Of a DNA stretch of 64,000 nt, positions 14 through 62,528 are shown piece by piece; the stretch's first letter is position 1; every line of letters begins with the position of its first letter. The DNA comes from Saprospira grandis (GTDB lineage Bacteria > Bacteroidota > Bacteroidia > Chitinophagales > Saprospiraceae), in assembly GCF_027594745.1 (NCBI RefSeq), contig NZ_CP110854.1, positions 1,180,241-1,244,240 on the forward strand, read 5' to 3'. The notes beneath the pieces were generated by a model. It was given only the letters and a program-made list of their open reading frames with translations, was not told the DNA's origin and made no database searches. A program made the position numbers and the translations under genes.

Positions 14-52
14 TATAGGCTAGTTCTTGATTCAGGACTAGCCTATTTTTTT
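14..52 (+). terminator. Intrinsic terminator: hairpin ataggctagt/actagcctat plus T-run, downstream of an off-window gene ending TAA at 1-3
   Basis: 10-bp inverted repeat with 12-nt loop followed by TTTTTTT. The T-run runs straight into a GC-rich repeat copy. Confidence 0.5.
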
Positions 53-192
53 GGGGCCTGCCGCCTTTGGCGGCCGGGCCCTTGCGGGGCTCGCAAGTCT
101 GCTCGGCCCTGCGCCGCTTTCAGCGGCTGGGTCTGGCCTACGGCCCCCCCTTCAGGCCCCTAGGCCTGCGGCGGCTTCGCCGCCTACAAAAC
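46..192 (+). repeat. GC-rich interspersed repeat, copy 1 (forward)
   Basis: TTTTTTGGGGCCTGCCGCCTTTGGCGGC hairpin module, GCTCGCAAGTCTGCTCGGCCCTGCG core and GGTCTGGCC...GGCTTCGCCGCC tail. Shares these modules with more than 20 other copies. Confidence 0.85.
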
Positions 193-312
193 CCAGAAAA
201 CGAATAGCTAGAATAATTTCAAAGCAGAACTAAAAACAATAAAAAGCAAATTTCAGCTAATAAAATTTTAAATTAGAGGGCAAACCAATTCATCATTACA
301 ACCTTATAGTGT

Positions 313-3300
313 ATGCGTATACTTTATGCTTTTGCAGCTGCACTTTTGCTCTCTAGTTTTGGTCTACAAGCCCAAACGACAGCAGGAGACTGGCTAGCGC
401 TGAAGTCGGGCCGAGAATTTATTGCCGCCGACCTCATTAGCTTTAGCAGCCCGCAGCAACAAGATGTTTATCAAGGCAAGCTGTTTCGCTTAGCCAATTT
501 TAAAGAACTGCCCAATGCCAAAAAACGGGCAGCCATGCAAGACCAAGGCATTGTATTTTTAGAATACTTGCCAAAAAATAGCTACCTGCTTGCTATTCCG
601 AGCCGCCTAACTGTTCAAGATTTAGAAGGCTTTGGTATTCGTGGGCTCAAACTGCTCGCTCCCAAACATAAAATGGACGCCCGACTAGAGGAGCGTCCAT
701 TTCCTATTTGGGCCATGCAAGGGCAACAACTTAAGCTTTTTGTCCAAATTCATCAAAGCATCAACTGGGAGCAGGCTCTCCAAGAACTACAAACAGAAGG
801 CTATCCCCTGCTGTTTGTCAACCCCCTAAGCAGAACCCTAGTCACGGCCCTGCCTCCTAGCCAAATTGAACAACTAGCCCAAAAACCCTTTGTTCGCTAC
901 TTAGACTTACCCTCTGATCCTGGACAGCCAGAATCAGATGATGGCCGTAATCTTCACCGCGCCAACCTTATCGATGGCGATTATTATGGGGCCTATGCCT
1001 ATAATGGCGCTGGCGTGGCCGTCGCTATTAACGATGACGGTTTTGCTGGTCCACATATCGACTTTAAAGGCCGAGCCAACCAACAAGATGTAGCTGGCGA
1101 CTTTACTGGCTCTCATGGTGATATGACTGTGGGGATTGTGGGTGCCGCAGGTAACCTAGACCCTGTCATGAGAGGAATGGCCCCGCATGCTTATTTGCAC
1201 GTTCGCCAATATAATAGTAGCCTGCCCGGCACGGTGGCCCTCCACCAAGATAGCGCCGTTATGGTTTTCTCTAGCTCTTATTCTAATGGCTGTAATGCGG
1301 GCTATACCACCCTAGCCAGAACCGTAGACCAAGAGATTTATAGCAACCCTAGCCTCATTCAGGTCTTTTCTGGCGGAAATAGCAACGGTAGCGACTGTGG
1401 CTATGGCGCCGGTAGCCAATGGGGAAATATTACTGGAGGCCATAAAGTTGGAAAAAATGTTTTGGCTACCGCCAACCTCTTTAATGATGACGGCCTCGCC
1501 AATAGTAGTAGCCGTGGCCCCGCCTCCGACGGAAGAATCAAACCCGATATTTCCGCTCATGGCCAAGGCCAAATGTCTACCGACCCCGATAATACTTATG
1601 TGCCTGGTGGAGGAACTTCTGCCGCTGCTCCTGGTATCGCAGGGGTGCTCACCCAATTGCATCAGGCTTATCGAGACCTCAATGCTGGCGCTAACGCCCC
1701 CTCGGCCCTACTAAAAGCCGCATTGCTCAACTCTGCCAATGATCTAGGCAATGATGGCCCCGATTACTCTTTTGGCTGGGGGAAAGTGAACGCCTATCGC
1801 GCACTCAAAACCCTAGAAGAAAACCGATACATTAACGGATCTGTGGGACAAGCAGGCAGCGCTAGCCATACTATCAGTATACCCGCTAATGTTCGCCGAG
1901 CTAAAATTATGGTCTATTGGCACGATAAGGAGGCCTCTACTTCAGCCGCCCTTGCCCTAGTTAATAACCTAGACCTTACAGTTAGCGATCCTAGTAATAG
2001 CACGCATCTGCCCTGGATCCTCGACCCAACACCTAATGCCACTACCCTAGCCCTGCCCGCTACCAGAGGAGTCGATACCCTCAATAATGTGGAACAGGTG
2101 GCTATTGATAACCCTACTGCAGGAACTTATATCATTAACGTAAGTGGTACTGCGGTGCCCTTTGGCCCACAAGACTACTATATCGTCTATGAGTTTCTGA
2201 CCGATGACATCCTACTCACTTACCCCCTTGGTGGCGAAGGACTTATCCCTGGCAGCCAAGACCGTATCCATTGGGATGCCTATGGCACAAGCGCTAGCTT
2301 TAATATTGAGTATAGCGCCGATAATGGTAATTCTTGGGCTACAGTGCAATCTAATGTAGCTGGTACAGCTCGCTTTATTGACTGGACCGTCCCCACTGCT
2401 GTAACTGGCCAAGGACTTATTCGTATTACTAGAGGTAGCAACTCGGATATGAGCGATGCCAATTTCTCGATCCTAGAGACTCCTCAAAATATTCGGGTAG
2501 TTGCGGTCTGTACCTCTGCCAATACCATCCGCATCAATTGGGATGCCGTAGCTGGTGCCGCCGAATATGATGTCTTTGTTCTTGGTGCCACACATATGGA
2601 TTCTGTAGGCTCTACGGCTAACCTTAGCTTTGATGTCCCCGTCAACAATATCAATGATGACCAATGGTTCTCGGTTCGAGCCAAAGGCCCTAACGGCCTT
2701 AGAGGCCGCCGCGCTATTGCGGTCCAAATGCAAGGAGGCAATACAGGCAGCGCAGCCTGCCTTATGGATTGTGGACTAAATGACGATGCCGGAATTAGCC
2801 AGGTCTTTAGCCCCCAAACACAACAGCAAAGTTGTAATGGAAATAGCCTGCCCGTAGAAGTCGAATTGACAAACATTAGCAATCAAACACAAAGTAACTT
2901 TGAGGTCTACTACCAAGTCGATAACCAAACTATTGTCACCGATACCTTTACTGGCAGCCTAGCCGGAGGCGCTGTTGCTAACTTTAGCTTTAGCCAAGCC
3001 CTTACGCTTGCTGGCCCCGGCCAATATCAGTTTAAGGTCTGGACCAATATCCCTGGAGATGGCGCTCGCTGTAATGATACGATCGCTATGACAATTGATT
3101 TTAGCAATACGATTAGTGCTTTCCCTTATATCGAGGACTTTGAATCTGGCGTTTTCCCTCCCGCCAATAGCTATCTCGAAAATAATGATGCCGACCTCAG
3201 CTGGCAGGAAGATAATGTGACGGGTAGCGATGGCAACCCCACTACCGCTATTGTGGTCAATAACTTTGTCTATAATGCCGCCGGTGAAGAGGATGTCCTC

Positions 3301-5016
3301 GGCTTCTTTAGTATGGACCTCACTAACACTCCCGCCGCTCAACTCAGCTTTGATGTGGCTTATGCTCGCTATAGTGCCTCGCTCTATGATGGCCTAAGAG
3401 TAGAGGTCTCTACCGATTGTGGCCAAACCTATAGCCAACTCTACTTTAAAGAGGACCTTACACTCGCTACGGCAGGTACCCAAACTGGGCAGTTTAGCCC
3501 CGCCGCCGCTAGCGACTGGAGAACAGAGGTCATCGATCTCGCCCCTTACATTGGTAATAATGTGGCCTTCCGCTTTGTCAATATCTGTGGCTATGGTAAC
3601 GACCTTTTCCTAGATAATATCAATGTGACAACGCTTAATAATGCGCCCAGCGTGGCCTTTAGCGCTGGAAGCACCACTAGCTGTAATGGTTCGGTCTCTT
3701 TTATGGACCAATCTACAAATACGCCCACTAGCTGGGCCTGGGATTTTGGCGATGGCAATAGCTCTACGCAACAAAACCCCAACCATCAATATACTGCCAA
3801 TGGTAGCTATACGGTCCAACTAATTGCAAGTAACCAACTCGGTAGCGATACCCTGGTCCAAAGCAATTATGTAACAGTGAATTTCCCTACAGCCCCCACT
3901 GCTGCAACTCCAGCTACAGGCTGTGTTGGCCAAACTGTTGCCCTTAGCGCTACCGGCACAGGCAGCATCTGGTGGTCCGATGCAAACGGTAATTTCCTCT
4001 TTGAAGGCAATACTTATAATGCAACGCCTACGGCTACAAGCAGCAACTATTCGGTCCAAAATGTAGTCACTTCTCCCTCTCAGCAGGTTGGCCCAGCCAA
4101 CCCCGCCGCTCTAGGAGCTGGAGGCTATTTTACGGGTACCCAATACCTGAATTTCGACGCCAGCAGCCCCATTCGCATCGTTTCCGTTTTGGTAGATGCC
4201 GATGGCGCAGGCAACAGAACCATTGAGCTTTATGATGCAGCCAATGGCGGCGGTAACCTAATTCAATCCACTACCGTAAATGTTCCTAACGGACAAAGCC
4301 GCATTGCACTCAATTTTGAACTGCCCGCTGCAGGTACATATAGTATCGGCGGAACAGCTCTAAATCTCTACCGCAATAATGCCGGCGCAGCCTATCCCTA
4401 TAGTATCGCTGGCCTGATGAGCATCACGGGCTCTTCTTTTAGCCCCGATTACTACTATTTCTTCTACGATTGGGAGGTCCAAGATGCCCCCTGCCGCTCT
4501 ACTGCTGTTACGGTTAATGTCTCTGCCGATGAGGCAAACTTTAATCATGATGCCAATGCGAGTACTCTTGCCGTTAACTTCACGGACCTATCTGCTGGAG
4601 CCAATAGTTGGAGCTGGGATTTTGGCGATGGCAATAGCTCGACGCAACAAAATCCTAGCTACAGCTATGCCGCCCCTGGCGTTTATCTGGTCCAATTGAC
4701 GATCAATGGTAACTGCAGCTATACCGATACGGTCACGGTTGGCCCCACGGCTATCCAAAGCTGGAGCAATGGCACTGATGTACGCATCCTGCCCAATCCT
4801 AGCCTCGGCCAAAGCCGCCTGCAACTCTCTAGCGCCCTCAGCAATACCCTAAGCGTTCAACTGATTGCCCTAGACGGACGTATCCTCCAAAGCTATGAAC
4901 TGCCCGCTGGCCAAAATAGCCTAGACCTTAATGAGGAGCTCGCCCCCGGCGTCTATTTCTTGCGCATGCAAAATGAACAGGAGCAACTCCTACTCAAATG
5001 GATTATTCAAGACTAA
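313..5016 (+). CDS. Secreted subtilisin-like serine peptidase (S8) with two PKD-like domains and a T9SS C-terminal sorting domain
   Basis: Signal peptide MRILYAFAAALLLSSFGLQAQ. GTSAAAPGIAGV matches the subtilase catalytic Ser motif. Two WDFGDGNSSTQQNP...YTVQL PKD-like units. C-terminal ILPNPSLGQSRLQL...VYFLRMQ matches the Por/T9SS sorting domain pattern. Confidence 0.85.
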   Translation: MRILYAFAAALLLSSFGLQAQTTAGDWLALKSGREFIAADLISFSSPQQQDVYQGKLFRLANFKELPNAKKRAAMQDQGIVFLEYLPKNSYLLAIPSRLTVQDLEGFGIRGLKLLAPKHKMDARLEERPFPIWAMQGQQLKLFVQIHQSINWEQALQELQTEGYPLLFVNPLSRTLVTALPPSQIEQLAQKPFVRYLDLPSDPGQPESDDGRNLHRANLIDGDYYGAYAYNGAGVAVAINDDGFAGPHIDFKGRANQQDVAGDFTGSHGDMTVGIVGAAGNLDPVMRGMAPHAYLHVRQYNSSLPGTVALHQDSAVMVFSSSYSNGCNAGYTTLARTVDQEIYSNPSLIQVFSGGNSNGSDCGYGAGSQWGNITGGHKVGKNVLATANLFNDDGLANSSSRGPASDGRIKPDISAHGQGQMSTDPDNTYVPGGGTSAAAPGIAGVLTQLHQAYRDLNAGANAPSALLKAALLNSANDLGNDGPDYSFGWGKVNAYRALKTLEENRYINGSVGQAGSASHTISIPANVRRAKIMVYWHDKEASTSAALALVNNLDLTVSDPSNSTHLPWILDPTPNATTLALPATRGVDTLNNVEQVAIDNPTAGTYIINVSGTAVPFGPQDYYIVYEFLTDDILLTYPLGGEGLIPGSQDRIHWDAYGTSASFNIEYSADNGNSWATVQSNVAGTARFIDWTVPTAVTGQGLIRITRGSNSDMSDANFSILETPQNIRVVAVCTSANTIRINWDAVAGAAEYDVFVLGATHMDSVGSTANLSFDVPVNNINDDQWFSVRAKGPNGLRGRRAIAVQMQGGNTGSAACLMDCGLNDDAGISQVFSPQTQQQSCNGNSLPVEVELTNISNQTQSNFEVYYQVDNQTIVTDTFTGSLAGGAVANFSFSQALTLAGPGQYQFKVWTNIPGDGARCNDTIAMTIDFSNTISAFPYIEDFESGVFPPANSYLENNDADLSWQEDNVTGSDGNPTTAIVVNNFVYNAAGEEDVLGFFSMDLTNTPAAQLSFDVAYARYSASLYDGLRVEVSTDCGQTYSQLYFKEDLTLATAGTQTGQFSPAAASDWRTEVIDLAPYIGNNVAFRFVNICGYGNDLFLDNINVTTLNNAPSVAFSAGSTTSCNGSVSFMDQSTNTPTSWAWDFGDGNSSTQQNPNHQYTANGSYTVQLIASNQLGSDTLVQSNYVTVNFPTAPTAATPATGCVGQTVALSATGTGSIWWSDANGNFLFEGNTYNATPTATSSNYSVQNVVTSPSQQVGPANPAALGAGGYFTGTQYLNFDASSPIRIVSVLVDADGAGNRTIELYDAANGGGNLIQSTTVNVPNGQSRIALNFELPAAGTYSIGGTALNLYRNNAGAAYPYSIAGLMSITGSSFSPDYYYFFYDWEVQDAPCRSTAVTVNVSADEANFNHDANASTLAVNFTDLSAGANSWSWDFGDGNSSTQQNPSYSYAAPGVYLVQLTINGNCSYTDTVTVGPTAIQSWSNGTDVRILPNPSLGQSRLQLSSALSNTLSVQLIALDGRILQSYELPAGQNSLDLNEELAPGVYFLRMQNEQEQLLLKWIIQD

Positions 5017-5048: not shown

Positions 5049-5082
5049 AGGCCTTCCTTTTGGAAGGTCTCTTTTTTTTGGG
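5049..5082 (+). terminator. Intrinsic terminator after the S8 peptidase gene
   Basis: GGCCTTCC-TTTT-GGAAGGTC hairpin followed by T8. Continues directly into a repeat copy. Confidence 0.5.
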
Positions 5083-5232
5083 GCCTGCCGCCTTCGGCGG
5101 CCGGGCCCTTGCAGGGCTCGCAAGCCTGCTCGGCCCTTCGTTTTTCGCTGCGCTCAAAACTCGGTCTGGCCTGCGGCCACCCTTTCAGGCCCCTAGGCCG
5201 ATAGCCACTGCGGCTTTCAGCCGCAGCAAAAA
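5074..5232 (+). repeat. GC-rich interspersed repeat, copy 2a (forward)
   Basis: TTTTGGGGCCTGCCGCCTTCGGCGGCCGGGCC...GCTCGCAAGCCTGCTCGGCCC; same modules as copy 1. Confidence 0.85.
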
Positions 5233-5261: not shown

Positions 5262-5499
5262 CTGGACCTAGCAGGGCCGAAGGCCCGCAGACTGAGGGAT
5301 GAGAGCAGGGCCGCCGCAGGCGGCAGACCCAGGCGCTTTAGCGCCGCAGGGCCGAGCGACCCGACCAACGGGAGCCGACGCAGCGAAGCAAGTAACAGCG
5401 AGCTGCGGACAGCCCGACCCGACTGAAAGGACAACCAGCCCCAAAGGGGCGCCAGTTCGACAACCGAAGGGCGTAGCGGCAGCCCCAAAAAATCATCAT
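5262..5499 (-). repeat. GC-rich interspersed repeat, copy 2b (reverse), head-to-head with 2a
   Basis: Reverse-complement modules ...GGGCCGAGCGACCCGACC...GCAGCCCCAAAAAA. Forms a composite palindrome with copy 2a. Confidence 0.8.
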
Positions 5500-8365: not shown

Positions 8366-8387
8366 AATATTATATAGTTCTTGTTTT

Positions 8388-8566
8388 TCGGTTGGGGTTG
8401 GGGGGGGGTTGGGGCTGCCCCTCGCCTATCGGCTCGGGTCGGGCTCTGTCGGGGCTCGCAGGTCTGCTCGGCCCTGCGCAAAATTCGCTACGCTCATTTT
8501 GCTGGGTCTGCGGCTTCGCCGCCCCCCTTTCCATCCCTCAGCCGAGGCGCTTCGCGCCTGCTTGCT
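8388..8566 (+). repeat. GC-rich interspersed repeat, copy 3 (forward)
   Basis: GCTCGCAGGTCTGCTCGGCCCTGCG core; tail GGGTCTGCGGCTTCGCCGCCCCCCTTTCCATCCCTCAGCCGAGGCGC shared with copy 6. Confidence 0.8.
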
Positions 8567-8571
8567 GCAAA

Positions 8572-9204
8572 TTATTGGCCCAATAAAATTTGTTGGGGAA
8601 AGAGTTTTTTGAGGCGGGCATCATGGGTAACAATCAGCAGGCTAGCGTTTAGGGCTTCTGATTGTTCTCGGAGGAGCTGGGCCACTTCCTCGGCATTTTT
8701 ATCGTCTAGGCTGGCCGTGGGTTCATCGGCCAAGATGAGTTGGGGGCGGCGCAGCAGCACACGAGCAATAGCGATGCGTTGTTGTTCGCCTTGGCTCAGT
8801 TGCTGGGGTTTGGCCTTGCGTTTATCGGCTAGACCTAGGCGATCTAGCAAATGGACAATGGCATTTTTGTCTTCTTTAATTTGGGCAAAATGCTGGGCGG
8901 CCAATAGGTTTTCTTCCACATTTAGGGAGCGGATAAGGTGGGCTTGTTGGAAGACCACCCCGACCTTTTGGCCTCTATACTCATCTAGGCTGCCCTTCAT
9001 ATTTTCTAGGGCCAAATCGCCTAGGCGGATACTGCCTTTTTGCAATTTTCGGAGGCCTGCGATCAGGTGGAGCAGGGTTGTTTTGCCGCAGCCAGATTGG
9101 CCTAAGAGCAGGCGTTGCTCGCCTGCGGGGCAAGTAAAATTGGGAAAATCAATTTGTTTTCCATCGGGATATTGGTAACTAACATCTTGAACGTGTAGGT
9201 CCAT
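8572..9204 (-). CDS. ABC transporter ATP-binding protein (stand-alone ATPase; no adjacent permease)
   Basis: Walker A GQSGCGKTT, signature LSQGEQQRIAIARVL and Walker B LILADEPTASLD. The start at MDLHVQDV (9204) is preferred over the longer ORF start at 9261, which runs into a repeat. Confidence 0.85.
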   Translation of the reverse strand: MDLHVQDVSYQYPDGKQIDFPNFTCPAGEQRLLLGQSGCGKTTLLHLIAGLRKLQKGSIRLGDLALENMKGSLDEYRGQKVGVVFQQAHLIRSLNVEENLLAAQHFAQIKEDKNAIVHLLDRLGLADKRKAKPQQLSQGEQQRIAIARVLLRRPQLILADEPTASLDDKNAEEVAQLLREQSEALNASLLIVTHDARLKKLFPQQILLGQ

Positions 9205-9225
9205 AGGAAAGGAGTTTCTGGTCCA

Positions 9226-9398
9226 AAAAATGGCGGCTTTGCCGCCTTGGCCGCAGGCCAAACGGCCTAGCGATGTGCAGGGGTGGCCGCAGGCCAGACC
9301 GAAGCGCGCAGCGCTGAAGGGCCGAGCGAACAGCGAGCCCCGAAGCGTAGCGCCGCAGCTTGCTGCGGAGGCCCCAAAAGGGCATAAAAAAGGGGAGA
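9226..9398 (-). repeat. GC-rich interspersed repeat, copy 4 (reverse)
   Basis: GGCCTAGCGATGTGCAGGGGTGGCCGCAGGCCAGACC...GCAGCTTGCTGCGGAGGCCCCAAAAG. Begins right after the stop of the 1885-aa gene. Confidence 0.85.
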
Positions 9399-9438
9399 AC
9401 AGCGAACTGTCCTCCCCTCAAAAGTACAATATTTTGGC

Positions 9439-12400
9439 TTATTTCTGCAAAATAATGCGTTCGGTCAATACTTGTTCACCGATGATGATGCGAGCGAGAT
9501 AAACGCCAGCGCTATAATCGGCTAGGTTAATTTGGTAGTTAAGGTTGCGGCCCAATTGGCTGGGGAAGCGTTGAACTTCTTGGCCATTGAGGTTATAGAT
9601 CGTCAATTGTACTTCCTCCTCCTTGGCTAGTTCAATTTGCAGCTGAGCGACATCTTGAGTAGGATTGGGGAAGAGATTCAATTGATTGAGGCCTTCAACG
9701 CCACTGATGTTAGTGGGTTGAGTGTAAGCCACTGTGATCGTTTGGCTAGTAGAGCAACCTACTTGATCGTAGACCGTCACTTCATATTGGCCAGAAACGA
9801 GGTTATTGATGCTAGCGGTAGTATCGCCAGTATTCCAAACGATGTAGTAAGGACCAACACCGCCAGATACAGAAACATCGATAGATCCGGCGAAGTCGCT
9901 GCTTTCGTTCACTACATTATCCACATTGATGGTCAAAGCGGGGTTAGCGCTAATGGTATAGCTTTCGTTGTAGGTACAGCCAGAAGCGTCGGTTACCGTT
10001 ACGCTATAAGTTTCGCCATCGAGGACGTTGCTTAGTGCGGCAGTTGTTGCGCCATTGCTCCAGTTGTAGGTATAGGGAGCGGTACCGCCTTGTACGCCTA
10101 CTTGGAGTGTACCTGCATTGCCACAATCTACGCCACTAGCCATAAAGCTAAAGTTGAGTGGGGCGGGACCATTAACGGGGTATGTTTCGTTAAACTCACA
10201 GCCATTATCGTCGGTAATAGTTACGGTATAAGTTCCAACATCTAGTCCAGTGATATCTTCAGTAGTAGCGCCGGTGGTCCAATTGAAAGAGAAAGGAGCC
10301 GTACCGCCAGCCAAAGTAATATCAACAGCACCGTTGCCATCGCGTCCGCAGTTCAGCGTACTCAACTGAGCGCTAACTGTGGGGCCAGTAAAGAAAGAGA
10401 TCTGGATAGAGTCGGTAAGTAGACAGCCATTAGCGTCAGTCATTGTGACTGCATATTGGCCCTCCATATTAGCGACAATACCGGGAGTAGTTTCTCCAGT
10501 GCTCCAGAGATAGCCTTGAGCGCCTGGGGCGGCAGCAAGGCCGATAGGGTTACTTTCACAGATGGTTGCATCGGGGCCAAGGTCTAGGTTGGCTGTTGCC
10601 ACCACAGTAGCGGTAACGGGGGTACGCGTTGTACCGCCAGCACAAGAAGTAATTTCTGCGTAGTAAGTAGTAGATACTTGGAGCGCAGGAGTAGTAAATA
10701 CGGGATCGGTAGACAAGAGCGTACCGCCAGTAGCTTGGTCGTACCAGCTAATTCCGCCAGCGGGCATAGAGGTCAAGCTAGCGCTATTTCCGACACAAGT
10801 CGTATCGCCCATGAAAGTGGGGTTAGGATTAGCGATGCTCACACAAACGTTAGCGGTATCATTGCTTGCGTTGCCATCGGCGGCAAGTTGTGTAATAATT
10901 TCGAAGCAGTAATTTCCACCACCAGTAGTATTAAAAGTACCTACAGTGAGAGTATCTTGAGCGGCAGAAGCTAGAGGACCAGCATAGGTAGCGCTAAAGG
11001 TTTGCGTACCATTGGGGCCGTTCAAGTTTACGGTTACAGGAACATTGCTAATGCTATTGCTACCATTATTAGAAAGCGTAATGACCAAAACTTCATTGGC
11101 ATTTTCGCAGGTACCTACGCTAGGTGCATCAACACCAACTGCTACGGCATCATCGGTAAAGATAGTAATTTCATCGGCTCCGATATCGGGTAGTGTAGTA
11201 CTAGCAGAGGGGCGGGTTTCGCCATCGATATCTGTAGCTACGCCTACAAGGGCGCCAGCGGCATTGAGTTGGATATTTTGAACGTGTAGGTCCGTGTAGT
11301 TGGCTACAAACTGAGGATCGATATCCAAAGAGTTAGCATCATAGCCATAGGGGCCAGAAGCCTGCCAAGTAGCCAAATCATAGGTTGTTGTCCCATAATC
11401 GATATGGTTCGTTCCGCTTGCCTTATAGAATACGTTATTATCCATAGCGGCCAAAGGCAAAGCATCGGCAGATTCAAAGGCGTAGGCAGAAGCATTATCG
11501 GCCACAAAGATATTATTGCGAATATCTAGGTCGGTGGGGTCATTCATATAGAGACCAGAAGCCAGTGTACTACCAGAACCGACTAGTGTATTGTGCCAGA
11601 TATCTACAGATTGGATATCATCCATGTAGAGGGCATCATCACTCTTAGAGAAGACCATATTGTTAATAATCTGTCCACGGCGAGTAATTGCGCCATCAAA
11701 GTTACCATCAGAGATATAGATACCATAATCTTCTGTCACCACACGGTTGTAGTTGATCGTAAAGTCCATGATATCGAAGCAATAGATTGCATCACTGAAG
11801 GTAGAGCCTACAGTTGTTTCAATCGTATTATAGTTAATCTCTAGAGAGTCTTGATCATCGATATAGATACCATAGTCATCAAAGTCCATGATTGTGTTAT
11901 TGATGATGCGGTTATACTTGTTACGAGCAGCGCTAGCGCCTTCGATATGGATTCCCATTTCTCCACCCGTGATATAGTTGTTCTCGATGAGGGTATAATT
12001 GGCGTTATTGCCTTCTGAGTAGTCATCGGTAAGGCTAGCCGAAATCACTAGAGGAATCACATCAAAAACAGAGGTTTGGAAAGTAGCGCTAATGCGGTTA
12101 TTTCTGATGCGGTTATGGTCTGCGCCATTAGTCAATTGTACCCCCCAGCCATCGCCGCCAGAAACGGCAGTAGTAGCGATACTGAAGTTTTGTACGGTTA
12201 CATAATCGGCTCCATCCAATAGTACAGTGGCATATTGGCTATTAGAAGCGTCATGAGTAAGGAAAGTAGTTGCGGTATCGCCACCATCAAAAGTGATGGT
12301 ATTGCTCATGCTAGCGCCAGAGATTTCTCCGATAAGCGCCAATTGTTGTCCGCTATAAGTACCTGCGGCCACTTGGAAAGTGACTGCACCAGCTACACCA

Positions 12401-15096
12401 CATTGGTAGAGGCGAGCTACAGCATCTGTAATAGCGGGAAAATCAGAAGTGGGCGTACCTACAGTATAAGTACCCACTAGGCCTTGGCAAAGCTCGGCAT
12501 AGAGCGTATCATTGCTCATGCGGTCATCGGTTTGGCCGTTGGGCATGTTGGTCCAGAAGACAAAGTCTACATTTTGGCCCGCGGGGAAGTTAATGCTACT
12601 TAGGGTAACATCTACTTCTTGTTGGGGAGCAAGAGGAGCTCCAGTATAGCCAATTGTTCCTTGAGGCGTTCCGTTGTAGGTCCAATCGATATTGAAAGAG
12701 GTCAAATCTTGTACACCAAAGTTACGCACACGTACGGTTACGGCTTGGAAGCCTGCAGTTAGTGGAGAAACGGGATTGACCAAAGCGATCACACCAGCAT
12801 CATTATCTTTGGGGCGGAACTCATCTGCTCCAATATCTACGGTAGTGGCGCCAGTAAATGGACGGCTTTCGCCATCAATATCTACAGTAACGCCAACAGT
12901 ATTATCTCCAGCATCATTAGCAAAAGCACCATCTACGTGTAGGTCCATAGGGCCTATGAAAACGGGATCAGCTTCTACAGAGTTAGTACCATGGCCAAAA
13001 GTGTTGCTATTTTGCCAAGTCGCTACATCAACATAGTTAGAGGTACCAAACTGAATAAAGTTAGTTCCGGGGTTGAAGCGGAAAAACAGGTTATGGTCCA
13101 TATCAGTTAGGGCCAAGGCATCGGCATGGCGGAAAGTATAGCCAAAGTCTGAGGTAAAGATATTGTTTACTGCAGAAACATCAATCAAGTCATTGCCATA
13201 GAAAGATGCGCTGGTAGTACTTGTATTTTTGTTCCAGGTGCTGTTATGGAAAACATCCGTTTCGTTCACATCATCTAGATAAATACAATAGAACCCTTCA
13301 GCGATAGACATATTGTTGATCACCTCTCCACGACGGCTAGGGGTCGCATCAAAGTTTCCATCAGAAATATAGATGCCATAATCTTGTGCATAAACATTAT
13401 TGCTATTGATACGGAAGTTCATCAAGTCAAGGCAATAGATGGCATCAGAGAAGGTAGAGCGAAGATCATTCACAGTGTTTCCGATGATCTCGACAGAATC
13501 TTGATCATCCATATAGAAACCATAATCATCTACGCCAGTGATTGTATTATTGATAAAGCGGTTGCCTACATTGCGGTTAGCGCTAGCGCCCTCAAAGCGG
13601 ACGGCATAGTCTCCTCCTGTAATGTAGTTGCCTTGGATCAGGTTATAGTTGGCATTGTCGCCTTCGCTAAAGGTGCTAGTATAACTAGCAGAAGCAAGAA
13701 TAGCTACAGCATCAACGATACCTGACTGATAAGGCATTGTAATTTGGTTATTGAGGATTTGGTTATTATTGGCCGAGTTGGTCAAGAATACTCCCCAAAT
13801 ATCAGTAGTTCCTGTACTTTGGATACCTAGGTTTTGGATACGCACCCATTCTACGCCATCTAGAGCTACAGTAGCATTGCCGTTGGCCCCAGAACCATCA
13901 TGCGTTACAATAGTATTAGCGGCATTTCCACCATCAAAGGTTACCGTATTTACTGCAGAGGCCCCTGTGATAGGACCAACTAGGGCAATATTTTCGGTAT
14001 AAGTGCCAGGCTGAATATTAAAAGTAACTGGACCACTAATTCCGCAGCTATACAAAGCGGCAACAGCATCTCCAATAGTAGCAAAGTCGGCAGTTGCGCC
14101 CCCTACCGTATAAGCCCCATTAAGGCTGGTACAGAAGAAAGCAGTCAAAGTATCATTGCCAGGAAAGTTATCTGCATTACCGTTGGGCAAAGAGGTCCAA
14201 GCTCTGATTGTCGTCAAACCATTAGCAAAGTTATAGTTTCCTAGGTTTACAGTTACGCTAGCCTGAGGAGCCACCAAGGTGCTATAATTGACCTGCGTTT
14301 GCATGACCCCATTCATTTCCCAGTCAATATTTACTGAGTTAAGGGCATTGGTGCCAAAGTTGGTTAGGGTTACATCTACGGCTTGGTTACCTGCTGTACC
14401 GGGTACAGTGGGCGCCACCAAAGCGCTAATTCCAGCATTATCGGGAACGGGAGGCGTACCTGTAATGCTAAAATCATCTAGGGTAAATCCATCAGAAACG
14501 GTAATGCTGGTGGCTTGAAAATCATCAGACCAACCAAAACGCACCTGAAAAGTACTACTGACCAACTGGCTATTGGCTGCTAGAGTAGCATCAATATCAA
14601 TACCCGTTTCATTAAAATAAACACCATTGGTTGTGTTTCCAGACCAATCTAGGACCTCAATCCAAGCATCGGTATTACTTCCACGGATCCAAACCCGGTC
14701 CTGAGTATGAACTTCATCCCCATGCTCCATCCACCAAAAGCTAAGCTCTAGGTCATTAGAACCTAAATAAGCACTAAGGTCTCCGGTAAAAGTCAAATAA
14801 GAAATCCCCAAAGTACCGCTCACTTCTGCATCTAGGGTCATGGCGCGGTTACCGCCATGATAAAAACCTGCTCCAGCATCAGTACGAAGACGACAGTTCG
14901 TGGTATTTTCTTCAAAATCCCATTGGTAGCCTGTGCCGTTAAGGCCAGGAATAGGGTTGGTAGTGGCTACATAAGTGCCGGCTGTGGCCCCCTCAAAGTC
15001 CTCATTATAAGGAAGGGTTAGCTGGGCCTGCAAGGAGGTCCAACTCGCCAAAAGCAGCGCTACACAATAGCCTAATTGTGTTAACGTTTTTCGCAT
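9439..15096 (-). CDS. Giant secreted T9SS cargo protein with tandem right-handed beta-helix modules and SprB repeats
   Basis: Signal peptide MRKTLTQLGYCVALLLASWTSLQAQ. Two near-identical beta-helix modules (YNLIQGNYITGGDYAVRFEGASANRN... and YTLIENNYITGGEMGIHIEGASAARN...). SprB-type repeats (e.g. GAVDITLAGGTAPFSFNWTTGATTEDITGLDVGTYTVTITDDNGC). C-terminal LFPNPTQDVAQLQIEL...VYLARII T9SS sorting domain. Confidence 0.8.
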   Translation of the reverse strand: MRKTLTQLGYCVALLLASWTSLQAQLTLPYNEDFEGATAGTYVATTNPIPGLNGTGYQWDFEENTTNCRLRTDAGAGFYHGGNRAMTLDAEVSGTLGISYLTFTGDLSAYLGSNDLELSFWWMEHGDEVHTQDRVWIRGSNTDAWIEVLDWSGNTTNGVYFNETGIDIDATLAANSQLVSSTFQVRFGWSDDFQATSITVSDGFTLDDFSITGTPPVPDNAGISALVAPTVPGTAGNQAVDVTLTNFGTNALNSVNIDWEMNGVMQTQVNYSTLVAPQASVTVNLGNYNFANGLTTIRAWTSLPNGNADNFPGNDTLTAFFCTSLNGAYTVGGATADFATIGDAVAALYSCGISGPVTFNIQPGTYTENIALVGPITGASAVNTVTFDGGNAANTIVTHDGSGANGNATVALDGVEWVRIQNLGIQSTGTTDIWGVFLTNSANNNQILNNQITMPYQSGIVDAVAILASASYTSTFSEGDNANYNLIQGNYITGGDYAVRFEGASANRNVGNRFINNTITGVDDYGFYMDDQDSVEIIGNTVNDLRSTFSDAIYCLDLMNFRINSNNVYAQDYGIYISDGNFDATPSRRGEVINNMSIAEGFYCIYLDDVNETDVFHNSTWNKNTSTTSASFYGNDLIDVSAVNNIFTSDFGYTFRHADALALTDMDHNLFFRFNPGTNFIQFGTSNYVDVATWQNSNTFGHGTNSVEADPVFIGPMDLHVDGAFANDAGDNTVGVTVDIDGESRPFTGATTVDIGADEFRPKDNDAGVIALVNPVSPLTAGFQAVTVRVRNFGVQDLTSFNIDWTYNGTPQGTIGYTGAPLAPQQEVDVTLSSINFPAGQNVDFVFWTNMPNGQTDDRMSNDTLYAELCQGLVGTYTVGTPTSDFPAITDAVARLYQCGVAGAVTFQVAAGTYSGQQLALIGEISGASMSNTITFDGGDTATTFLTHDASNSQYATVLLDGADYVTVQNFSIATTAVSGGDGWGVQLTNGADHNRIRNNRISATFQTSVFDVIPLVISASLTDDYSEGNNANYTLIENNYITGGEMGIHIEGASAARNKYNRIINNTIMDFDDYGIYIDDQDSLEINYNTIETTVGSTFSDAIYCFDIMDFTINYNRVVTEDYGIYISDGNFDGAITRRGQIINNMVFSKSDDALYMDDIQSVDIWHNTLVGSGSTLASGLYMNDPTDLDIRNNIFVADNASAYAFESADALPLAAMDNNVFYKASGTNHIDYGTTTYDLATWQASGPYGYDANSLDIDPQFVANYTDLHVQNIQLNAAGALVGVATDIDGETRPSASTTLPDIGADEITIFTDDAVAVGVDAPSVGTCENANEVLVITLSNNGSNSISNVPVTVNLNGPNGTQTFSATYAGPLASAAQDTLTVGTFNTTGGGNYCFEIITQLAADGNASNDTANVCVSIANPNPTFMGDTTCVGNSASLTSMPAGGISWYDQATGGTLLSTDPVFTTPALQVSTTYYAEITSCAGGTTRTPVTATVVATANLDLGPDATICESNPIGLAAAPGAQGYLWSTGETTPGIVANMEGQYAVTMTDANGCLLTDSIQISFFTGPTVSAQLSTLNCGRDGNGAVDITLAGGTAPFSFNWTTGATTEDITGLDVGTYTVTITDDNGCEFNETYPVNGPAPLNFSFMASGVDCGNAGTLQVGVQGGTAPYTYNWSNGATTAALSNVLDGETYSVTVTDASGCTYNESYTISANPALTINVDNVVNESSDFAGSIDVSVSGGVGPYYIVWNTGDTTASINNLVSGQYEVTVYDQVGCSTSQTITVAYTQPTNISGVEGLNQLNLFPNPTQDVAQLQIELAKEEEVQLTIYNLNGQEVQRFPSQLGRNLNYQINLADYSAGVYLARIIIGEQVLTERIILQK

Positions 15097-19120: not shown

Positions 19121-19202
19121 ATGATTTGAAACTACCATGATGCACCGCCTCCTTTTGTGGATTCCTTATATATTTTATTGTTTTTATTCTATGCTAAGTA
19201 GG

Positions 19203-39303: not shown

Positions 39304-39304
39304 T

Positions 39305-40917: not shown

Positions 40918-40946
40918 ATTTTATTCCAACATACAAAATATTGAGG

Positions 40947-46886: not shown

Positions 46887-46908
46887 TTTTTTCTGTTCTA
46901 TATGATTT

Positions 46909-49703: not shown

Positions 49704-49870
49704 CAATACTTAGGCGGCGAAGCCGCCTTGGCCGAAGGCCAAATGGCCTAGCGCTGCGGCGGGGTGGCCCAAAGGGCCAGACCTAGGCGGCAAAGCCGCC
49801 GCAGGGCAGAGCAGACCTGCGAGCCCCAAAGCATAGCGCCCGCAGCTTGCTGCGGGAGGCCCCACCCCCC
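49704..49870 (-). repeat. GC-rich interspersed repeat, copy 16 (reverse) in a divergent promoter region
   Basis: GGCCTAGCGCTGCGGCGGGGTGGCCCAAAGGGCCAGACC...GCAGCTTGCTGCGGGAGGCCCCACCCCCC. Confidence 0.8.
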
Positions 49871-54240: not shown

Positions 54241-54285
54241 TTAAAGCCCAAGAAGATAAAGGCTGCTGAAAAGTAGCCTTTTTTT

Positions 54286-54495
54286 TTGGGGCCTCCCGCC
54301 TTCGGCGGGCGGTTACTCCCTTCAGTCGTCGAACTGCGGCCTAAAGGCCTTGTTGTCGTTCCGCAGCTCGCTGCTGTTTTGGGGCCTCCCGCCTTCGGCG
54401 GGCGCTACGTTCCGCAGCTCGCTATTCGCTCGGCCCTGCGGCCTCACGGCCTTGGTCTGCGGCTGCGCCGCACTGCTACACATCGCTAGGCCGCT
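54286..54495 (+). repeat. GC-rich interspersed repeat, copy 17 (forward; hairpin module duplicated; module B present)
   Basis: TTTTTTTGGGGCCTCCCGCCTTCGGCGGGCGGTTACTCCCTTCAGTCGTCGAACTGCGGCCTAAAGGCCTTGTTGTCGTT...TTTTGGGGCCTCCCGCCTTCGGCGGGCGCTACGTTCCGCAGCTCGC...ACATCGCTAGGCC. Confidence 0.85.
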
Positions 54496-54576
54496 CATCT
54501 GCCTTTTTCTAGCTTAAGTTTCTTCTTTGGCGGCTGGCTTGTTTTGGGCCGATGGGCTGAAGCCCATTTGGAAGAC

Positions 54577-55080
54577 GCTATTCTGCAACTGCAAAACGAC
54601 ATCTTACAGTTGCGCTAAGCTATTCTGCAGATGCAAAACGGCATATTACAGTTGCGGCAAGCTATTCTGCAACTGCAAAACGGCATATTACAGTTGCGGC
54701 AAGCTATTCTGCAACTGCAAAACGGCATATTACAGTTGCGGCAAGCTATTCTGCAACTGCAAAACGGCATATTACAGTTGCGGCAAGCTATTCTGCAGAT
54801 GCAAAATGGCATATTCCATTTGGAGGACGCTATTCTGCAACTGCAAAACGGCACATTCCATTTGGAGGACGCTATTCTGCAACTGCAAAACGACACATTC
54901 CATTTGGAGGATGCTATTCTGAAACTGCAAAACGGCATATTCCATTTGGAGGACGCTATTCTGCAACTGCAAAACGACACATTCCATTTGGAGGATGCTA
55001 TTCTGCAACTGCAAAACGGCATATTCCATTTGGAGGACGCTATTCTGAAACTGCAAAACGGCATATTCCATTTGGAGGAT
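54577..55080. repeat. 42-bp tandem repeat array, exactly 12 units in two sub-families, each unit with an internal 7-bp-stem hairpin
   Basis: Units GCTATTCTGCAACTGCAAAACGGCATATTACAGTTGCGGCAA (stem GCAACTG/CAGTTGC) followed by units GCTATTCTGCAACTGCAAAACGGCACATTCCATTTGGAGGAC. Open in 5 of 6 frames, which is trivially frame-preserving because 42 = 14 codons. Confidence 0.9.
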
Positions 55081-55139
55081 GCTATTAGGAATTTGCGAAA
55101 ACGTAGCATCAAGACTTTGATGGGCTGTTCCAAAAATTC

Positions 55140-55272
55140 GTCCTACAGGCCCGAAGGGCCGCAGGCCTAGCGATGCGAAAGGGGGCTGCGCAGCCGCAGA
55201 CCAAGGCCGTCAGGCCGCAGGGCCGAGCAGACCTGCGAGCCCTGAAGCGTAGCGCCTGCAGCTTTGCTGCAG
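55140..55272 (-). repeat. GC-rich interspersed repeat, copy 18 (reverse)
   Basis: GGCCTAGCGATGCGAAAGGGGGCTGCGCAGCCGCAGACCAAGGCCGTCAGGCCGCAGGGCCGAGCAGACCTGCGAGCCCTGAAGCGTAGCGCCTGCAGCTTTGCTGCAGGAGGCCCCAAAACAAC. Confidence 0.85.
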
Positions 55273-55320
55273 GAGGCCCCAAAACAACAACAGCAAGAGC
55301 ATAAAAAACAGCAGACTAAA

Positions 55321-60235: not shown

Positions 60236-60425
60236 GTTTTTTGGGGCTGCCCCGCCCTTTGGGCGGGTCGGGCTATGTCGCAGCTCGCAGGTCTGCTCGG
60301 CCCTGCGGGCTTTTTCGCTTTGCTTCAAAAGCCCTGGGTCTGGCCTTCGGCCACTGCTTTCTATCCCTCAGCCACGTCGCTACGCTCCTATGCGGGCGCT
60401 GCGCGCCCTGCAAAGCTGCAATTGG
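60236..60425 (+). repeat. GC-rich interspersed repeat, copy 19 (forward)
   Basis: Starts 2 bp after the stop: TGTTTTTTGGGGCTGCCCCGCCCTTTGGGCGGGTCGGGCTATGTCGCAGCTCGCAGGTCTGCTCGGCCCTGCGGGC... Confidence 0.85.
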
Positions 60426-60434: not shown

Positions 60435-62216
60435 CTAGCGCTTTTTGGGCGGAAAAAGCTCAAAGCGCTTCTGAAAATCTTTCAATAAGCCATTTTGCTT
60501 CAAAAAGTGGACATACTTCTCTCGGTCGGTTGTCGGCCGATGTTTTGGCTTGGGGATATCTTCTTCCTTGGGTTCCTCTATCGTAAATTTGTACTGTAAT
60601 TTGGGCAGACCAAATTCTTCTCGCAACTGATTGAGCAGGGCCTGTTCATCGCCAATAGCGTCTTTTACTCTTTGGCTACTCACCACTAATCCTAGGGCCT
60701 GTTCTTCTTTGGGCAAAACCGTCAATTTAGCCGATCGCAGCAGGGCTTGCATAGAAGGCGACTCCATTTTTTGGGCATAGGCTTCCCAAAGGGCCAAAAC
60801 AGCCTTTTCTTCCCAGCTTTTGTGTACAATTTGCTTTTTGCGCTCTTCTTCCGCCTGAATTTCGGCCTTAAGGGCATCTATGGCCGTTTCTTTTTTCTTT
60901 TTGAGGCGCTCCTTTAAACTCTTTTTAGGCTTTTTTTCCAGTTTTGGCGCTGCCTCCTTGGGCTCTTCTTTGGTTGCAACTACTTTAGGGCTAGTTGTTT
61001 CTTTGGGTTCTTCTTGTTTTTTGCTGGGGGCAGCGCCTTCTTGGACCACTTCCGTCGGCCTACTTTCTACGGTTTGCACATACTGTACAACTTGCTGTGG
61101 AGCCAAAGTTTTGGGCTGTATCGCCCTGCGGATATGGGCCATTTTAATCAGAGCCATTTCTACATGTAGGCGCTTATTTCTGGCCATTTTATAATTCACA
61201 TCGCAGGCGGCGCTCAGGCTCAGGGCCGAAACCAAAATATCTTTGGGCGCCAATTGGGCCTGTTGCTGATAGCGTTGGCGCAGCTTTTCACTAAGGTCCA
61301 AAAGGCCAAGGGTGCTAGCATCTTGGGCCATTAGCAAATTGCGCAAATGCAAAGAAAGGCCATCTAAGAAAATATCGCCATCAAATCCCTTTCGCTGAAT
61401 TTGGTCAAAGATGAGGAGCAATTGCTGCATATCCTCCGCCAAGATGGCATCAATAATCTGAAAGTAATAATCGTAATCTAAAATATTCAGGTTTTCAATG
61501 ACATCCTCATAGCGGATATGGCTGCCTGAAAAACTGACCATGCGGTCAAAAATAGAAAGGGCATCTCGCAGAGCGCCATCGGCCTTTTGGGCAATCATAT
61601 TGAGGGCCTCTTCTTCGGCCTCAATGCCCTCTTCTTGGCAAATTTTGGCCAAATGCGCTCGCATATCGGCTACCTGAATTCGATTAAAGTCAAAAATTTG
61701 ACAGCGAGAGAGAATAGTGGGAATAATTTTATGCTTCTCGGTAGTGGCCAAAATGAAAATGGCATAAGAGGGCGGTTCCTCCAAAGTTTTTAGAAAAGCA
61801 TTAAAGGCCGCCTGAGAAAGCATATGCACCTCATCAATAATATAGATTTTGTAGCGGCCCTTTTGAGGAGCAAAACGCACTTGTTCAATCAAAGAGCGGA
61901 TATGCTCTACCGAGTTATTGGAGGCGGCATCTAGCTCATGAATATTGAGTGAAGCATTTTCTCTAAAGGCTGTGCAAGAAGGGCATTCATCGCAGGGCTC
62001 GGTATCTGAGGTGGGATTTTCACAATTGAGTAATTTGGCCAAGATACGGGCGCAGGTCGTTTTGCCCACCCCTCTAGGGCCACAAAACAAAAAAGCTTGG
62101 GCCAAATGCTCTGAGCGGATGGCATTTTTGAGGGTATTAGAAACATGTTGTTGACCCACCACCGAATCAAAGCGGATGGGACGATATTTGCGGGCGGAAA
62201 CGACGAAATTACTCAT
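60435..62216 (-). CDS. dnaX: DNA polymerase III subunit gamma/tau
   Basis: FLFCGPRGVGKTTCARILAKLLNCE Walker A. Zinc module CDECPSCTAF. Sensor motifs. Lys/Glu-rich linker. Typical DnaX length. Confidence 0.9.
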   Translation of the reverse strand: MSNFVVSARKYRPIRFDSVVGQQHVSNTLKNAIRSEHLAQAFLFCGPRGVGKTTCARILAKLLNCENPTSDTEPCDECPSCTAFRENASLNIHELDAASNNSVEHIRSLIEQVRFAPQKGRYKIYIIDEVHMLSQAAFNAFLKTLEEPPSYAIFILATTEKHKIIPTILSRCQIFDFNRIQVADMRAHLAKICQEEGIEAEEEALNMIAQKADGALRDALSIFDRMVSFSGSHIRYEDVIENLNILDYDYYFQIIDAILAEDMQQLLLIFDQIQRKGFDGDIFLDGLSLHLRNLLMAQDASTLGLLDLSEKLRQRYQQQAQLAPKDILVSALSLSAACDVNYKMARNKRLHVEMALIKMAHIRRAIQPKTLAPQQVVQYVQTVESRPTEVVQEGAAPSKKQEEPKETTSPKVVATKEEPKEAAPKLEKKPKKSLKERLKKKKETAIDALKAEIQAEEERKKQIVHKSWEEKAVLALWEAYAQKMESPSMQALLRSAKLTVLPKEEQALGLVVSSQRVKDAIGDEQALLNQLREEFGLPKLQYKFTIEEPKEEDIPKPKHRPTTDREKYVHFLKQNGLLKDFQKRFELFPPKKR

Positions 62217-62282
62217 AATAATTTAACTTGTAGGGCAAAGATAGGCTTTCTAAAGGAACTTAGAAGCCCTTCTGAATAAGAA

Positions 62283-62528
62283 GAGGGCAAAAACTTCTGC
62301 GGTCCTTTGGCCTAGCGATGTGCAGCAGTGGCCGTCAGGCCAGACCAAGGCGCTGCAAGCGCCGCAGGGCCGAGCGAACAGCGAGCTGCGAAACGTAGCG
62401 CCCGCCGAAGGCGGGAGGCCCCAAAACAACAGCGAGCTGCGAAACGACAACAAGCCCTTTAGGGCGCAGTTCGACGACCAAAGGGAGTAACCGCAGCAAG
62501 GCGAAGCCGCAGCTGAGGCCCCAAAAAA
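62283..62528 (-). repeat. GC-rich interspersed repeat, copy 20 (reverse; with module B)
   Basis: GGCCTAGCGATGTGCAGCAGTGGCCGTCAGGCCAGACC...GGGCCGAGCGAACAGCGAGCTGCGAAACGTAGCGCCCGCCGAAGGCGGGAGGCCCCAAAA...AACGACAACAAGCCCTTTAGGGCGCAGTTCGACGACCAAAGGGAGTAACCGCAGC...GAGGCCCCAAAAAATAAA. Confidence 0.85.

Follow-up and report, generated by a model that had tools for sequence, protein, structure and literature searches.

A family of GC-rich interspersed repeats was analyzed in a stretch of 64,000 nucleotides from Saprospira grandis WH-T (WH; NCBI RefSeq contig NZ_CP110854.1, positions 1,180,241 to 1,244,240), referred to below as the window. The genes of the window are ordinary and include a Bat cluster, dnaX, a transaldolase gene, and a homologue of the major vault protein (MVP), as indicated by a Pfam scan of 40 open reading frames (ORFs). 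The repeats are intergenic, non-coding elements with a unit of about 125 nt. A covariance model of the family (R1) detected 22 elements, 11 per strand, with bit scores of 80 to 122 for 21 of them and of 36 for a degenerate copy at 5293-5433, and nhmmer recovered the identical set. In a self-BLAST of the window, 21 GC-rich repeat regions were found with a total of 3,847 nt, extra modules included, corresponding to 6.0% of the sequence. They form sharply bounded islands of 62 to 72% GC, compared to about 48% for the whole window. The core GCTCGCARGYCTGCTCGGCCCTGCGGCC was matched 13 times at ≤3 mismatches (expectation 0) and the sequence TTTTGGGGCC 57 times at ≤1 mismatch (expectation 14).

Repeat elements of the window

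The original prediction, made from the letters of the window, had described at least 22 GC-rich copies in both orientations, covering about 6% of the window and sharing the ordered modules A, B, core, and tail. All of this was borne out, and each module was seen in the alignment of oriented copies. The statement that the copies occupy nearly every intergenic gap holds for most gaps of at least 100 nt (18 of 25) and is overstated for all gaps, 19 of 44 of which contain an element. The two pairs described as head-to-head (5076/5293 and 19203/19367) are real. Since their T-run ends point outward in the predicted 5′-to-3′ module order, the arrangement is tail-to-tail. Tandem duplications of module A were confirmed as additional 5′ units at 26599, 46906, and 54284 and were also found at 33268 and 62427, whereas the duplication at 42295 does not involve module A and flanks a B module on the tail side of the element. 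As predicted, no transposase domain was present in the 40 ORFs scanned against Pfam, a set that comprised all but three giant ORFs and a few small ones, and no integrase was found among the ORFs scanned. ORFs that cross copies are artefacts of the high GC content, and the alternative that the copies derive from a decayed gene family was ruled out by length steps of a single base and by the covariation of the hairpins.

Element 1 (49-170, minus strand, 89.4 bits in R1) is a full element whose T-run head (46-52) directly follows a terminator hairpin (18-43). The first tail-to-tail pair consists of element 2 on the left (5076-5203, minus, 81.0 bits) and the degenerate element 3 on the right (5293-5433, plus), which matches model positions 8-117 and has a head reaching to about 5490. 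Element 4 (8407-8547, minus, 94 bits) has type 2 ends (GGCTG/CAGCC) and is followed by element 5 (9260-9379, plus, 103.4 bits). Two further type 2 copies are element 6 (15239-15369, plus, 94.6 bits), located in a divergent promoter region, and element 7 (16910-17027, minus, 90.5 bits), whose head is eroded as judged by comparison with a relative's sequence. The second tail-to-tail pair, elements 8 (19203-19324, minus, 97.5 bits) and 9 (19367-19498, plus, 89.7 bits), lies in the Bat gene cluster. According to the five-genome alignment described below, the interior of element 10 (23911-24043, plus, 101.6 bits) is strain variable between identical flanks. Element 11 (26694-26816, minus, 122.2 bits) carries an extra 5′ unit with module B (26599-26693, minus), as revealed by strain comparison. 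Element 12 (29682-29823, plus, 80.3 bits) has type 3 ends (GGCCC/GGGCC) and is interrupted by an insertion sequence (IS) in strain Lewin.

In the right half of the window, element 13 (33352-33472, minus, 104.6 bits) is preceded by an extra 84-nt 5′ unit with module B (33268-33351, minus) that strain comparison detected only in WH among five genomes. Element 14 (35710-35837, plus, 117.7 bits) is of type 2, and its minimum-energy fold is the consensus fold, which also applies to element 20 (55160-55284, plus, 106.5 bits). Element 15 (39313-39442, minus, 121 bits) is read through by the ORF 39266-40318. Copy alignment showed that element 16 (42410-42533, plus, 117.4 bits) has a tail-side extension (42303-42409, plus) in which a B module is flanked by a duplicated hairpin block. 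It likewise identified extra units with module B on the 5′ side of element 17 (47011-47136, minus, 103.6 bits; unit 46906-47010, minus), on the 5′ side of element 19 (54377-54496, minus, 100.3 bits; unit 54284-54376, minus), where the unit starts right after the transaldolase terminator, and on the head side of element 22 (62305-62426, plus, 117.4 bits; unit 62427-62533, plus). The remaining copies are element 18 (49741-49867, plus, 108.5 bits) and the type 2 element 21 (60239-60377, minus, 101.9 bits).

Module B (GGTTACTCC...CTTGTTGTCGTT) has its own covarying hairpin, NNC-TAAAG-NN, and occurs at two different places in the element, always at a CGCTA motif and with the adjacent hairpin block duplicated; it may be a nested mobile module. 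It has the string GGTTACTC in common with a tandem array of a 27-nt unit (GGGGTTACTCTACCCCTCGAAAG...) at 40950-41358, which fills the ORF 40941-41384. A second repetitive ORF (54631-55170), made of QNGILQLRQAILQL-type repeats (54564-55103) and coiled-coil-like, sits between two members of an inverted element pair, and the 1,885-aa gene 9439-15096 contains an internal repeat of about 360 nt (11656-12015 and 13309-13665). Element-free terminator T-runs at 33575, 35655, 16895, and 60440 are followed by GGNCC (TTTTTGGCCC, TTTTTTGGTCC, TTTTTGGACC), which resembles the element head TTTTGGGGCC; these sites could be preferred targets or solo heads.

The longest ORFs at three sites cross elements (19137-20441, 26601-27602, and 39266-40318), and public annotations follow such read-through ORFs. 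An esterase is annotated with 386 to 387 aa in strains Lewin and DSM 2844 compared to 313 aa in strain CCB-QB6, and the gene after DUF58 is annotated with 434 aa. The N termini of these annotated proteins are probably encoded by the repeat.

Covarying fold of one strand

Parsing of 318 distinct full elements into modules revealed that one strand, 5′-GGCCUAGCG...GGAGGCCCCAAAA-3′, is constrained to fold into a fixed architecture. This structured strand is the complement of the one along which the modules had originally been ordered. A closing helix P1/P1b encloses the hairpin HP1′ and the helix P2, which in turn encloses two variable hairpins and the core hairpin. The latter (CGAGC-AGACCU-GCGAG) is invariant and contains tandem G.A/A.G pairs, which would be C.T/T.C on the complementary strand. 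Conserved linkers separate three hairpins of constant position, whose sequences are hypervariable, with 119 distinct HP2 sequences in 240 copies, yet nearly always perfectly complementary. A mini-hairpin GAGC-GNA-GCGA recurs within the variable hairpins. Directly 5′ of HP1′, type 1 copies have the GTAG-containing sequence CGUAGCG, and type 2 copies have ACAGCCCGACC at this position.

The two ends of P1, which are about 120 nt apart, covary: GGCCT/AGGCC was found in 187 copies, GGCTG/CAGCC in 84, GGCCC/GGGCC in 26, and GGCTT/AAGCC in 7. The ends were matched in 96% of the copies, with a Cramer's V of 0.99 between them, and the intervening modules were nearly unlinked to either end (V of 0.06 to 0.25). 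P2 is formed by the four pre-core bases with tail positions 3-6 and occurs as GGGG/CCCC (117 copies), GCAG/CUGC (108), AGGG/CCCU (57), and GCGG/CCGC (12). On the basis of this tabulated covariation, it replaced a pairing of the pre-core CGCAG with the adjacent CUGCG. In a MAFFT alignment of 38 diverse copies, 99.8% of the cells of the hand-drawn structure were paired, and 15 of its 24 pairs showed compensatory change. RNAalifold independently found the same helices and added P1b, for a total of 8 helices and 29 pairs, of which 16 showed compensatory change. The covariation score was 0.45, compared to 0.16 after shuffling (none of 500 shuffles reached 0.45) and at most 0.08 when the partners were slid by 1 to 3 columns. 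Because of the relatedness of the copies and the small number of P1 types (three or four), the shuffle control overstates independence, and the reassortment of the intervening modules is a stronger argument for selection on pairing.

Wobble pairs identified the folding strand. In P2, 22 copies with A:C on the complementary strand have G.U on the structured strand, the reverse occurring in none. All 15 single mismatches in HP2 and HP3 are likewise G.U on the structured strand, again without a reverse case, and U15.G95 is fixed in type 1 copies. When elements were folded individually, three of four adopted the consensus on the structured strand and not on the other, with modest z-scores of -2.3 to +0.3. 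The loops of the structured strand are mostly GAA, GCA, and AAA triloops, and some are CUUG closed by G-C. GNA triloops with a closing C-G pair are characteristic of highly stable DNA mini-hairpins, and CUUG is a stable RNA tetraloop; the sequence with its DNA-like and RNA-like loops thus does not decide between single-stranded DNA (ssDNA) and RNA.

Occurrence beyond the window

A scan of species genomes with the 25-nt core gave at least 120 blocks, each of up to 8 kb. Among the matches listed, almost all were spread over the entire 4.42-Mb chromosome of S. grandis DSM 2844, with more on a 56.6-kb scaffold, and the others were in metagenome-assembled genomes (MAGs) of Lewinellaceae and Saprospiraceae. 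The metagenome matches listed came mostly from one sample with a Saprospira-like organism (44% GC, 77 to 89% identity to the window). Of 72,556 plasmids searched, the two from Saprospira were the sole carriers of the element; they have it at 14 and 10 places, where it is unannotated. The genome, metagenome, and plasmid searches rule out a local peculiarity of the window. Viral contigs contained no exact match to the core, and a phage origin was set aside on this basis.

The DSM 2844 blocks, about 0.9 Mb in all, contained 287 elements, and 50 kb of Lewin plasmid sequence yielded 21. The density of about 0.34 per kb, or roughly 1 per 3 kb, was alike in the window, the DSM blocks, and the metagenome contigs and supports the predicted likeness to repetitive extragenic palindromic (REP) sequences and bacterial interspersed mosaic elements (BIMEs). 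By extrapolation, a genome probably contains about 1,000 to 1,500 copies, which is only an estimate because the DSM blocks were chosen for containing a match. MAGs of other Saprospirales genera have elements of the same architecture with the identical core GGCTCGCARGTCTGCTCGGCCCTGCG and different ends (GGGCGTG...CACGC), and elements of the Lewinellaceae and Saprospiraceae MAGs reached R1 scores of 17 to 84 bits.

No known RNA family was found: Rfam 15 gave no match at the gathering score over the whole window and only chance-level matches at E values up to 10 over two copies. No description of these repeats was found in the literature searched; a brief earlier mention is possible, and the original S. 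grandis genome papers (2012) lay outside this search. A 4.5-kb short-read contig with the transaldolase gene of the window (SRR23239775_1181) stops exactly at the element, showing that the family fragments short-read assemblies.

Evolution at orthologous sites

The window was compared over an orthologous stretch of 20.7 kb with strain Lewin (96 to 97% identity), an ENA contig (96%), DSM 2844 (93%), and Saprospira sp. CCB-QB6 (82 to 86%). All six element sites were occupied in all five genomes, so that presence or absence of a whole element was not observed at any of them, and the interiors differ by replacement of whole modules. Further element sites are common to the window and a metagenomic relative. 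Empty sites that would define the ends of an insertion were not found among the sites compared.

At 23911, HP1, HP2, HP3, the core loop variant, and module B vary among genomes with identical flanks, and Lewin and the ENA contig differ in HP1 alone. At 33352, the module combinations are phylogenetically inconsistent. The module B unit at 26599 is present in WH and DSM 2844, absent in Lewin and CCB-QB6, and doubled in the ENA contig. The unit at 33268, specific to WH, has GTTTT on both sides, a sequence that also belongs to the 13-nt head repeat. Genome-wide, one HP2 is combined with many HP3, core, and tail variants. Element identity was 0.93 where that of coding sequence was 0.97 (close strains) and 0.78 where that of third codon positions was 0.67, and at 60239 the copy and its orthologue in a relative share about 97% identity, compared to 77 to 83% for the flanking genes. 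Such fast short-term change with bounded long-term divergence is as expected from conversion-driven concerted evolution under structural constraint, and we infer gene conversion among the copies.

The homologue of the eukaryotic MVP (30735-33266) has an MVP_shoulder domain. A metagenomic relative lacks both this gene and its trailing element at 33352 (about 2840-3900 there), and bshB1 is then directly followed by the shared terminator. This sole absence was considered as an empty site and rejected, since the MVP gene is removed as well and no insertion end is defined.

In strain Lewin, an IS (8385-9830 of its compared stretch) is inserted at window position 29766 inside element 12; it encodes a 481-aa DDE_Tnp_1 transposase and has the inverted ends CTTGGGTTGACCCAC. 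The DSM 2844 sample encodes an IS5-like transposase (271 aa) 4 times. A second repeat family is AT rich, palindromic, about 157 nt long, and similar to miniature inverted-repeat transposable elements (MITEs), with a fold of -53.9 kcal/mol. The DSM 2844 sample has at least 12 copies (for example in block L080, 4974-5132), and the window has none. This element is present in DSM 2844 and the ENA contig and absent at the same sites in WH and Lewin (position of window 35694); in both cases seen, it was inserted just past the tail of a GC-rich element. Its polymorphism at the same loci indicates that polymorphism of the GC-rich elements would have been detectable.

Alternating orientation of neighboring elements

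The orientation of the elements is random with respect to the flanking genes, with 58 co-oriented and 59 anti-oriented elements between tandem genes. Of 209 elements classified, 117 lie in tandem, 47 in convergent, and 45 in divergent gaps, the divergent share being as chance predicts. Orientation is about 50:50 in every 0.4-Mb bin along the chromosome. These numbers rule out gene polarity and replication direction as determinants of orientation. Adjacent elements alternate, with 372 alternating and 44 same-orientation neighbor pairs (p ~1e-65), and each of the three data sets (window, DSM blocks, metagenome contigs) shows the pattern on its own. On the Lewin plasmid (annotated by RefSeq), 19 of 20 neighbor transitions alternate, including those within the co-directional pur and paa clusters.

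Pairs facing each other with their tails are short range: the partners are separated by no gene in 88 cases, by 1 gene in 88, and by 2 genes in 41. Head-facing pairs enclose 1 to 5 genes. Most elements are 1 to 2 genes away from an inverted partner. Of the neighbor pairs less than 450 nt apart, 67 of 69 are tail-to-tail, and pairs of the same orientation become more common with distance, from about 1% to 34%. Pair partners were no more alike than random copies (0.74 versus 0.75 identity), with 0.70 to 0.72 for close doublets, which rules out recent local inverted duplication as the source of the alternation. The genes flanked by inverted copies, considered as candidates for a mobilizing enzyme, are ordinary genes.

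The head contains at least three T residues in 85% of the copies and lies at a median distance of 57 nt from a gene end, with 3′ ends (312) faced about as often as 5′ ends (265); for the tail, the median distance to a gene is 132 nt. Several heads start directly after a canonical terminator hairpin and its T-run. Three partial candidates may be named for the alternation: deletion of closely spaced direct repeats coupled to the insertion of new copies as doublets, a function requiring inverted pairs, and ancient duplicative inversions in which the resemblance between partners is now lost. We know of no precedent for neighbor alternation on a kilobase scale.

Interpretation of the repeat family

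The reading that we favor, though tentatively, is that of an old, vertically inherited family of the REP/BIME/REPIN kind, handled as a folded single strand and homogenized by gene conversion. The copies persist at fixed intergenic sites and exchange hairpins and modules with other copies, and this exchange would occur by short-patch gene conversion among about a thousand or more of them. Such conversion would hold the scaffold near a single consensus even as hairpins are reshuffled, and the high GC content may be another result of it. The element would be processed as a folded single strand, most likely ssDNA, by a trans-acting enzyme encoded elsewhere in the genome, in the way REPs are by the REP-associated tyrosine transposase (RAYT). 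New copies would arise rarely, possibly as tail-to-tail doublets, and deletion of closely spaced direct repeats may add to the alternating orientation.

Several results weigh against this reading. No partner enzyme was found. The absence of transposases from the 40 window ORFs is a weak test on a small part of the genome. Equally weak are the absence of Y1/HUH and reverse transcriptase families among the multi-copy ORFs of the DSM sample and a tblastn search of about 1 Mb with IS200 and RAYT sequences, which returned nothing. The multi-helix unit of 125 nt is unlike a REP of 20 to 40 nt. Without an empty site among those compared, there is no defined insertion end or target duplication, and the similarity of pair partners (0.74 versus 0.75 for random copies) gives no sign of recent local duplication. 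Deletion of direct repeats alone fails to explain why tail-facing intervals are short and head-facing ones long. Finally, the sequence cannot separate ssDNA from RNA, and CUUG loops closed by G-C are frequent.

The original prediction had proposed a function at the RNA level or in genome architecture. The single-strand fold with its strand-specific wobble and the alternation of neighbors speak for it, and a tie to host transcripts was not supported. It is conceivable, although rather unlikely, that the elements are cis-acting structured RNAs, transcribed with their neighbors, whose fold, or whose duplexes between neighboring inverted copies similar to the stalks flanking rRNAs, direct processing, stability, or insulation of transcripts. 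G.U wobble confined to one strand, the tandem G.A pairs, and the CUUG tetraloop agree with this, as do the conservation of sites across species, the copy at 60239 being far better conserved than its flanking genes, and the location of elements within co-directional clusters (the Bat genes of the window and the plasmid-borne pur and paa genes). In addition, the alternation makes each neighbor pair complementary, and the 25-nt core would form a perfect duplex. However, in only half of the cases does the structured strand correspond to the sense strand of the flanking genes, divergent promoter regions are occupied as often as by chance (45 of 209), and several copies begin just past a canonical terminator and T-run. 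Random orientation to transcription and siting past terminators argue against a role bound to a particular mRNA. Moreover, the loops are mostly triloops rather than GNRA or UNCG tetraloops, the single-sequence z-scores are modest, and Rfam gave no match.

A broader proposal, which we regard as unlikely, is that of a host-integrated system across several Saprospirales genera in which the elements act in inverted pairs and are not mere passengers, or, as a second possibility, that of the first bacterial retroposons resembling short interspersed elements (SINEs). If the host-integrated version is true, inverted pairs split chromosome and plasmid into alternating short (0 to 2 genes) and long (1 to 5 genes) segments. 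Possible roles of these pairs would be those of RNA processing stalks or of single-strand or loop anchors bound by a hypothetical dedicated protein.

Still less probable is a role of the duplex as DNA architectural sites in inverted pairs, such as loop anchors, supercoiling barriers, or sites for nucleoid proteins or topoisomerases, as proposed for BIMEs, with the fold representing cruciform extrusion. The regular spacing of about 3 kb, the alternation independent of gene polarity and replichore (372 versus 44; 19 of 20 on the plasmid), the dissimilarity kept between partners in close doublets (0.70 to 0.72 versus 0.75), and the core conserved across genera would fit such sites. Nevertheless, binding to the duplex does not require long-range complementarity, wobble on one strand only is not what cruciform extrusion would favor, and a candidate protein is not known.

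A conventional MITE mobilized by a DDE transposase, with the complementary 5-bp ends and the T/A runs as terminal inverted repeats, is very unlikely. The ends are matched in 96% of the copies, an IS5-like transposase (4 copies in the DSM sample) and an IS4/IS5-like IS in Lewin are at hand, and the WH-specific 84-nt unit at 33268 is flanked by GTTTT direct repeats. Yet the invariant part is internal and the ends are variable, P2 and the hairpins covary deep inside the element, wobble is strand specific, and all orthologous sites compared are occupied in all genomes, while the true AT-rich 157-nt MITE of the same genomes shows presence/absence polymorphism. About 2 Mb of sequence, in which IS ends were not systematically examined, contained no evident IS whose ends match. 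The internal invariant core, the nested covarying fold, the strand-specific wobble, and the fixed sites together argue against a currently active MITE of the DDE type. Least probable of all is a SINE-like retroposon, in which RNA of the structured strand with its A-run end is copied into DNA primed on genomic T-runs: this strand does end in a variable A-run (3 to 9 T opposite in 85% of the copies, including genomes of 60% GC), heads adjoin T-rich terminators and leaders, and tandem units are placed at the T-run of an existing element, but no reverse transcriptase was seen among multi-copy ORFs (a weak test), truncation at the RNA-sense 5′ end affects only 8 of 586 copies, the sites compared showed no polymorphic insertions, and we know of no SINE-like mechanism in bacteria.

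About 6% of the genome would belong to one non-coding family under clear structural constraint for which no record was found in Rfam, the two Saprospira plasmid records, or the literature searched. The family joins features that are usually separate: REP-like abundance at fixed sites, a covarying nested RNA-like fold, hairpin exchange, and alternation over kilobases. If a protein partner or an RNA role exists, this would be a new way of organizing a bacterial chromosome and would extend the REPIN-type "intragenomic populations" beyond Proteobacteria. From a practical point of view, the elements break short-read assemblies and probably yield wrongly extended protein N termini in public annotations.

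Comparison with known repeat systems

The closest likeness is to the REP/BIME/REPIN-RAYT systems of enterobacteria and Pseudomonas, which are extragenic and relatively GC rich and occur in hundreds to thousands of copies. They too are assembled in mosaic fashion from palindromic units and linker motifs, contain inverted doublets, and have units of alternating orientation. The GTAG-containing CGUAGCG directly 5′ of HP1′, present in type 1 but not type 2 copies, may be a further parallel. REPIN/RAYT systems are vertically inherited and long-lived, and REPs are handled as folded ssDNA by a single-copy RAYT (PMC3116915; PMC5581495; bioRxiv 10.1101/2021.07.10.451892). Vertical inheritance, fixed sites, and the lack of an adjacent transposase are shared with the Saprospira elements (PMC3116915; PMC5581495). 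A REP, however, is a hairpin of 20 to 40 nt, whereas the unit described here is a nested multi-helix fold of 125 nt whose invariant part is an internal G.A hairpin. The hypervariable hairpins and the alternation over kilobases across genes also set the Saprospira family apart, as does its host, a member of the Bacteroidota ("Bacteroid" is not mentioned in PMC5581495). No RAYT was found, in weak tests that covered part of each genome. With a unit larger and more elaborate than a REP and no RAYT found in these partial tests, membership in the REP/REPIN class is not established.

BOX elements of Streptococcus pneumoniae and the Correia, ERIC, and RUP elements are, like those of Saprospira, built of ordered modules with a varying number of internal ones, intergenic, predicted to be structured, and without an encoded transposase. 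They show insertion polymorphism between strains and have conserved ends. The Saprospira elements differ in that the sites compared are fixed across species, the ends are variable, the core is invariant, and the covariation is strand specific.

Yeast mitochondrial GC clusters and Rickettsia palindromic elements are similar as GC-rich palindromic modules in a genome of lower GC content that are prone to recombination and conversion. The Rickettsia elements insert in frame within genes. Both belong to unrelated hosts, are unrelated in sequence, and are devoid of a conserved multi-helix scaffold.

The attC sites of integrons resemble the Saprospira elements in having a conserved structure with variable central sequence and length, of which one specific strand is folded and active. 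They form co-oriented cassette arrays beside an integrase, whereas the Saprospira elements, with no integrase among the window ORFs scanned, are dispersed and alternate in orientation.

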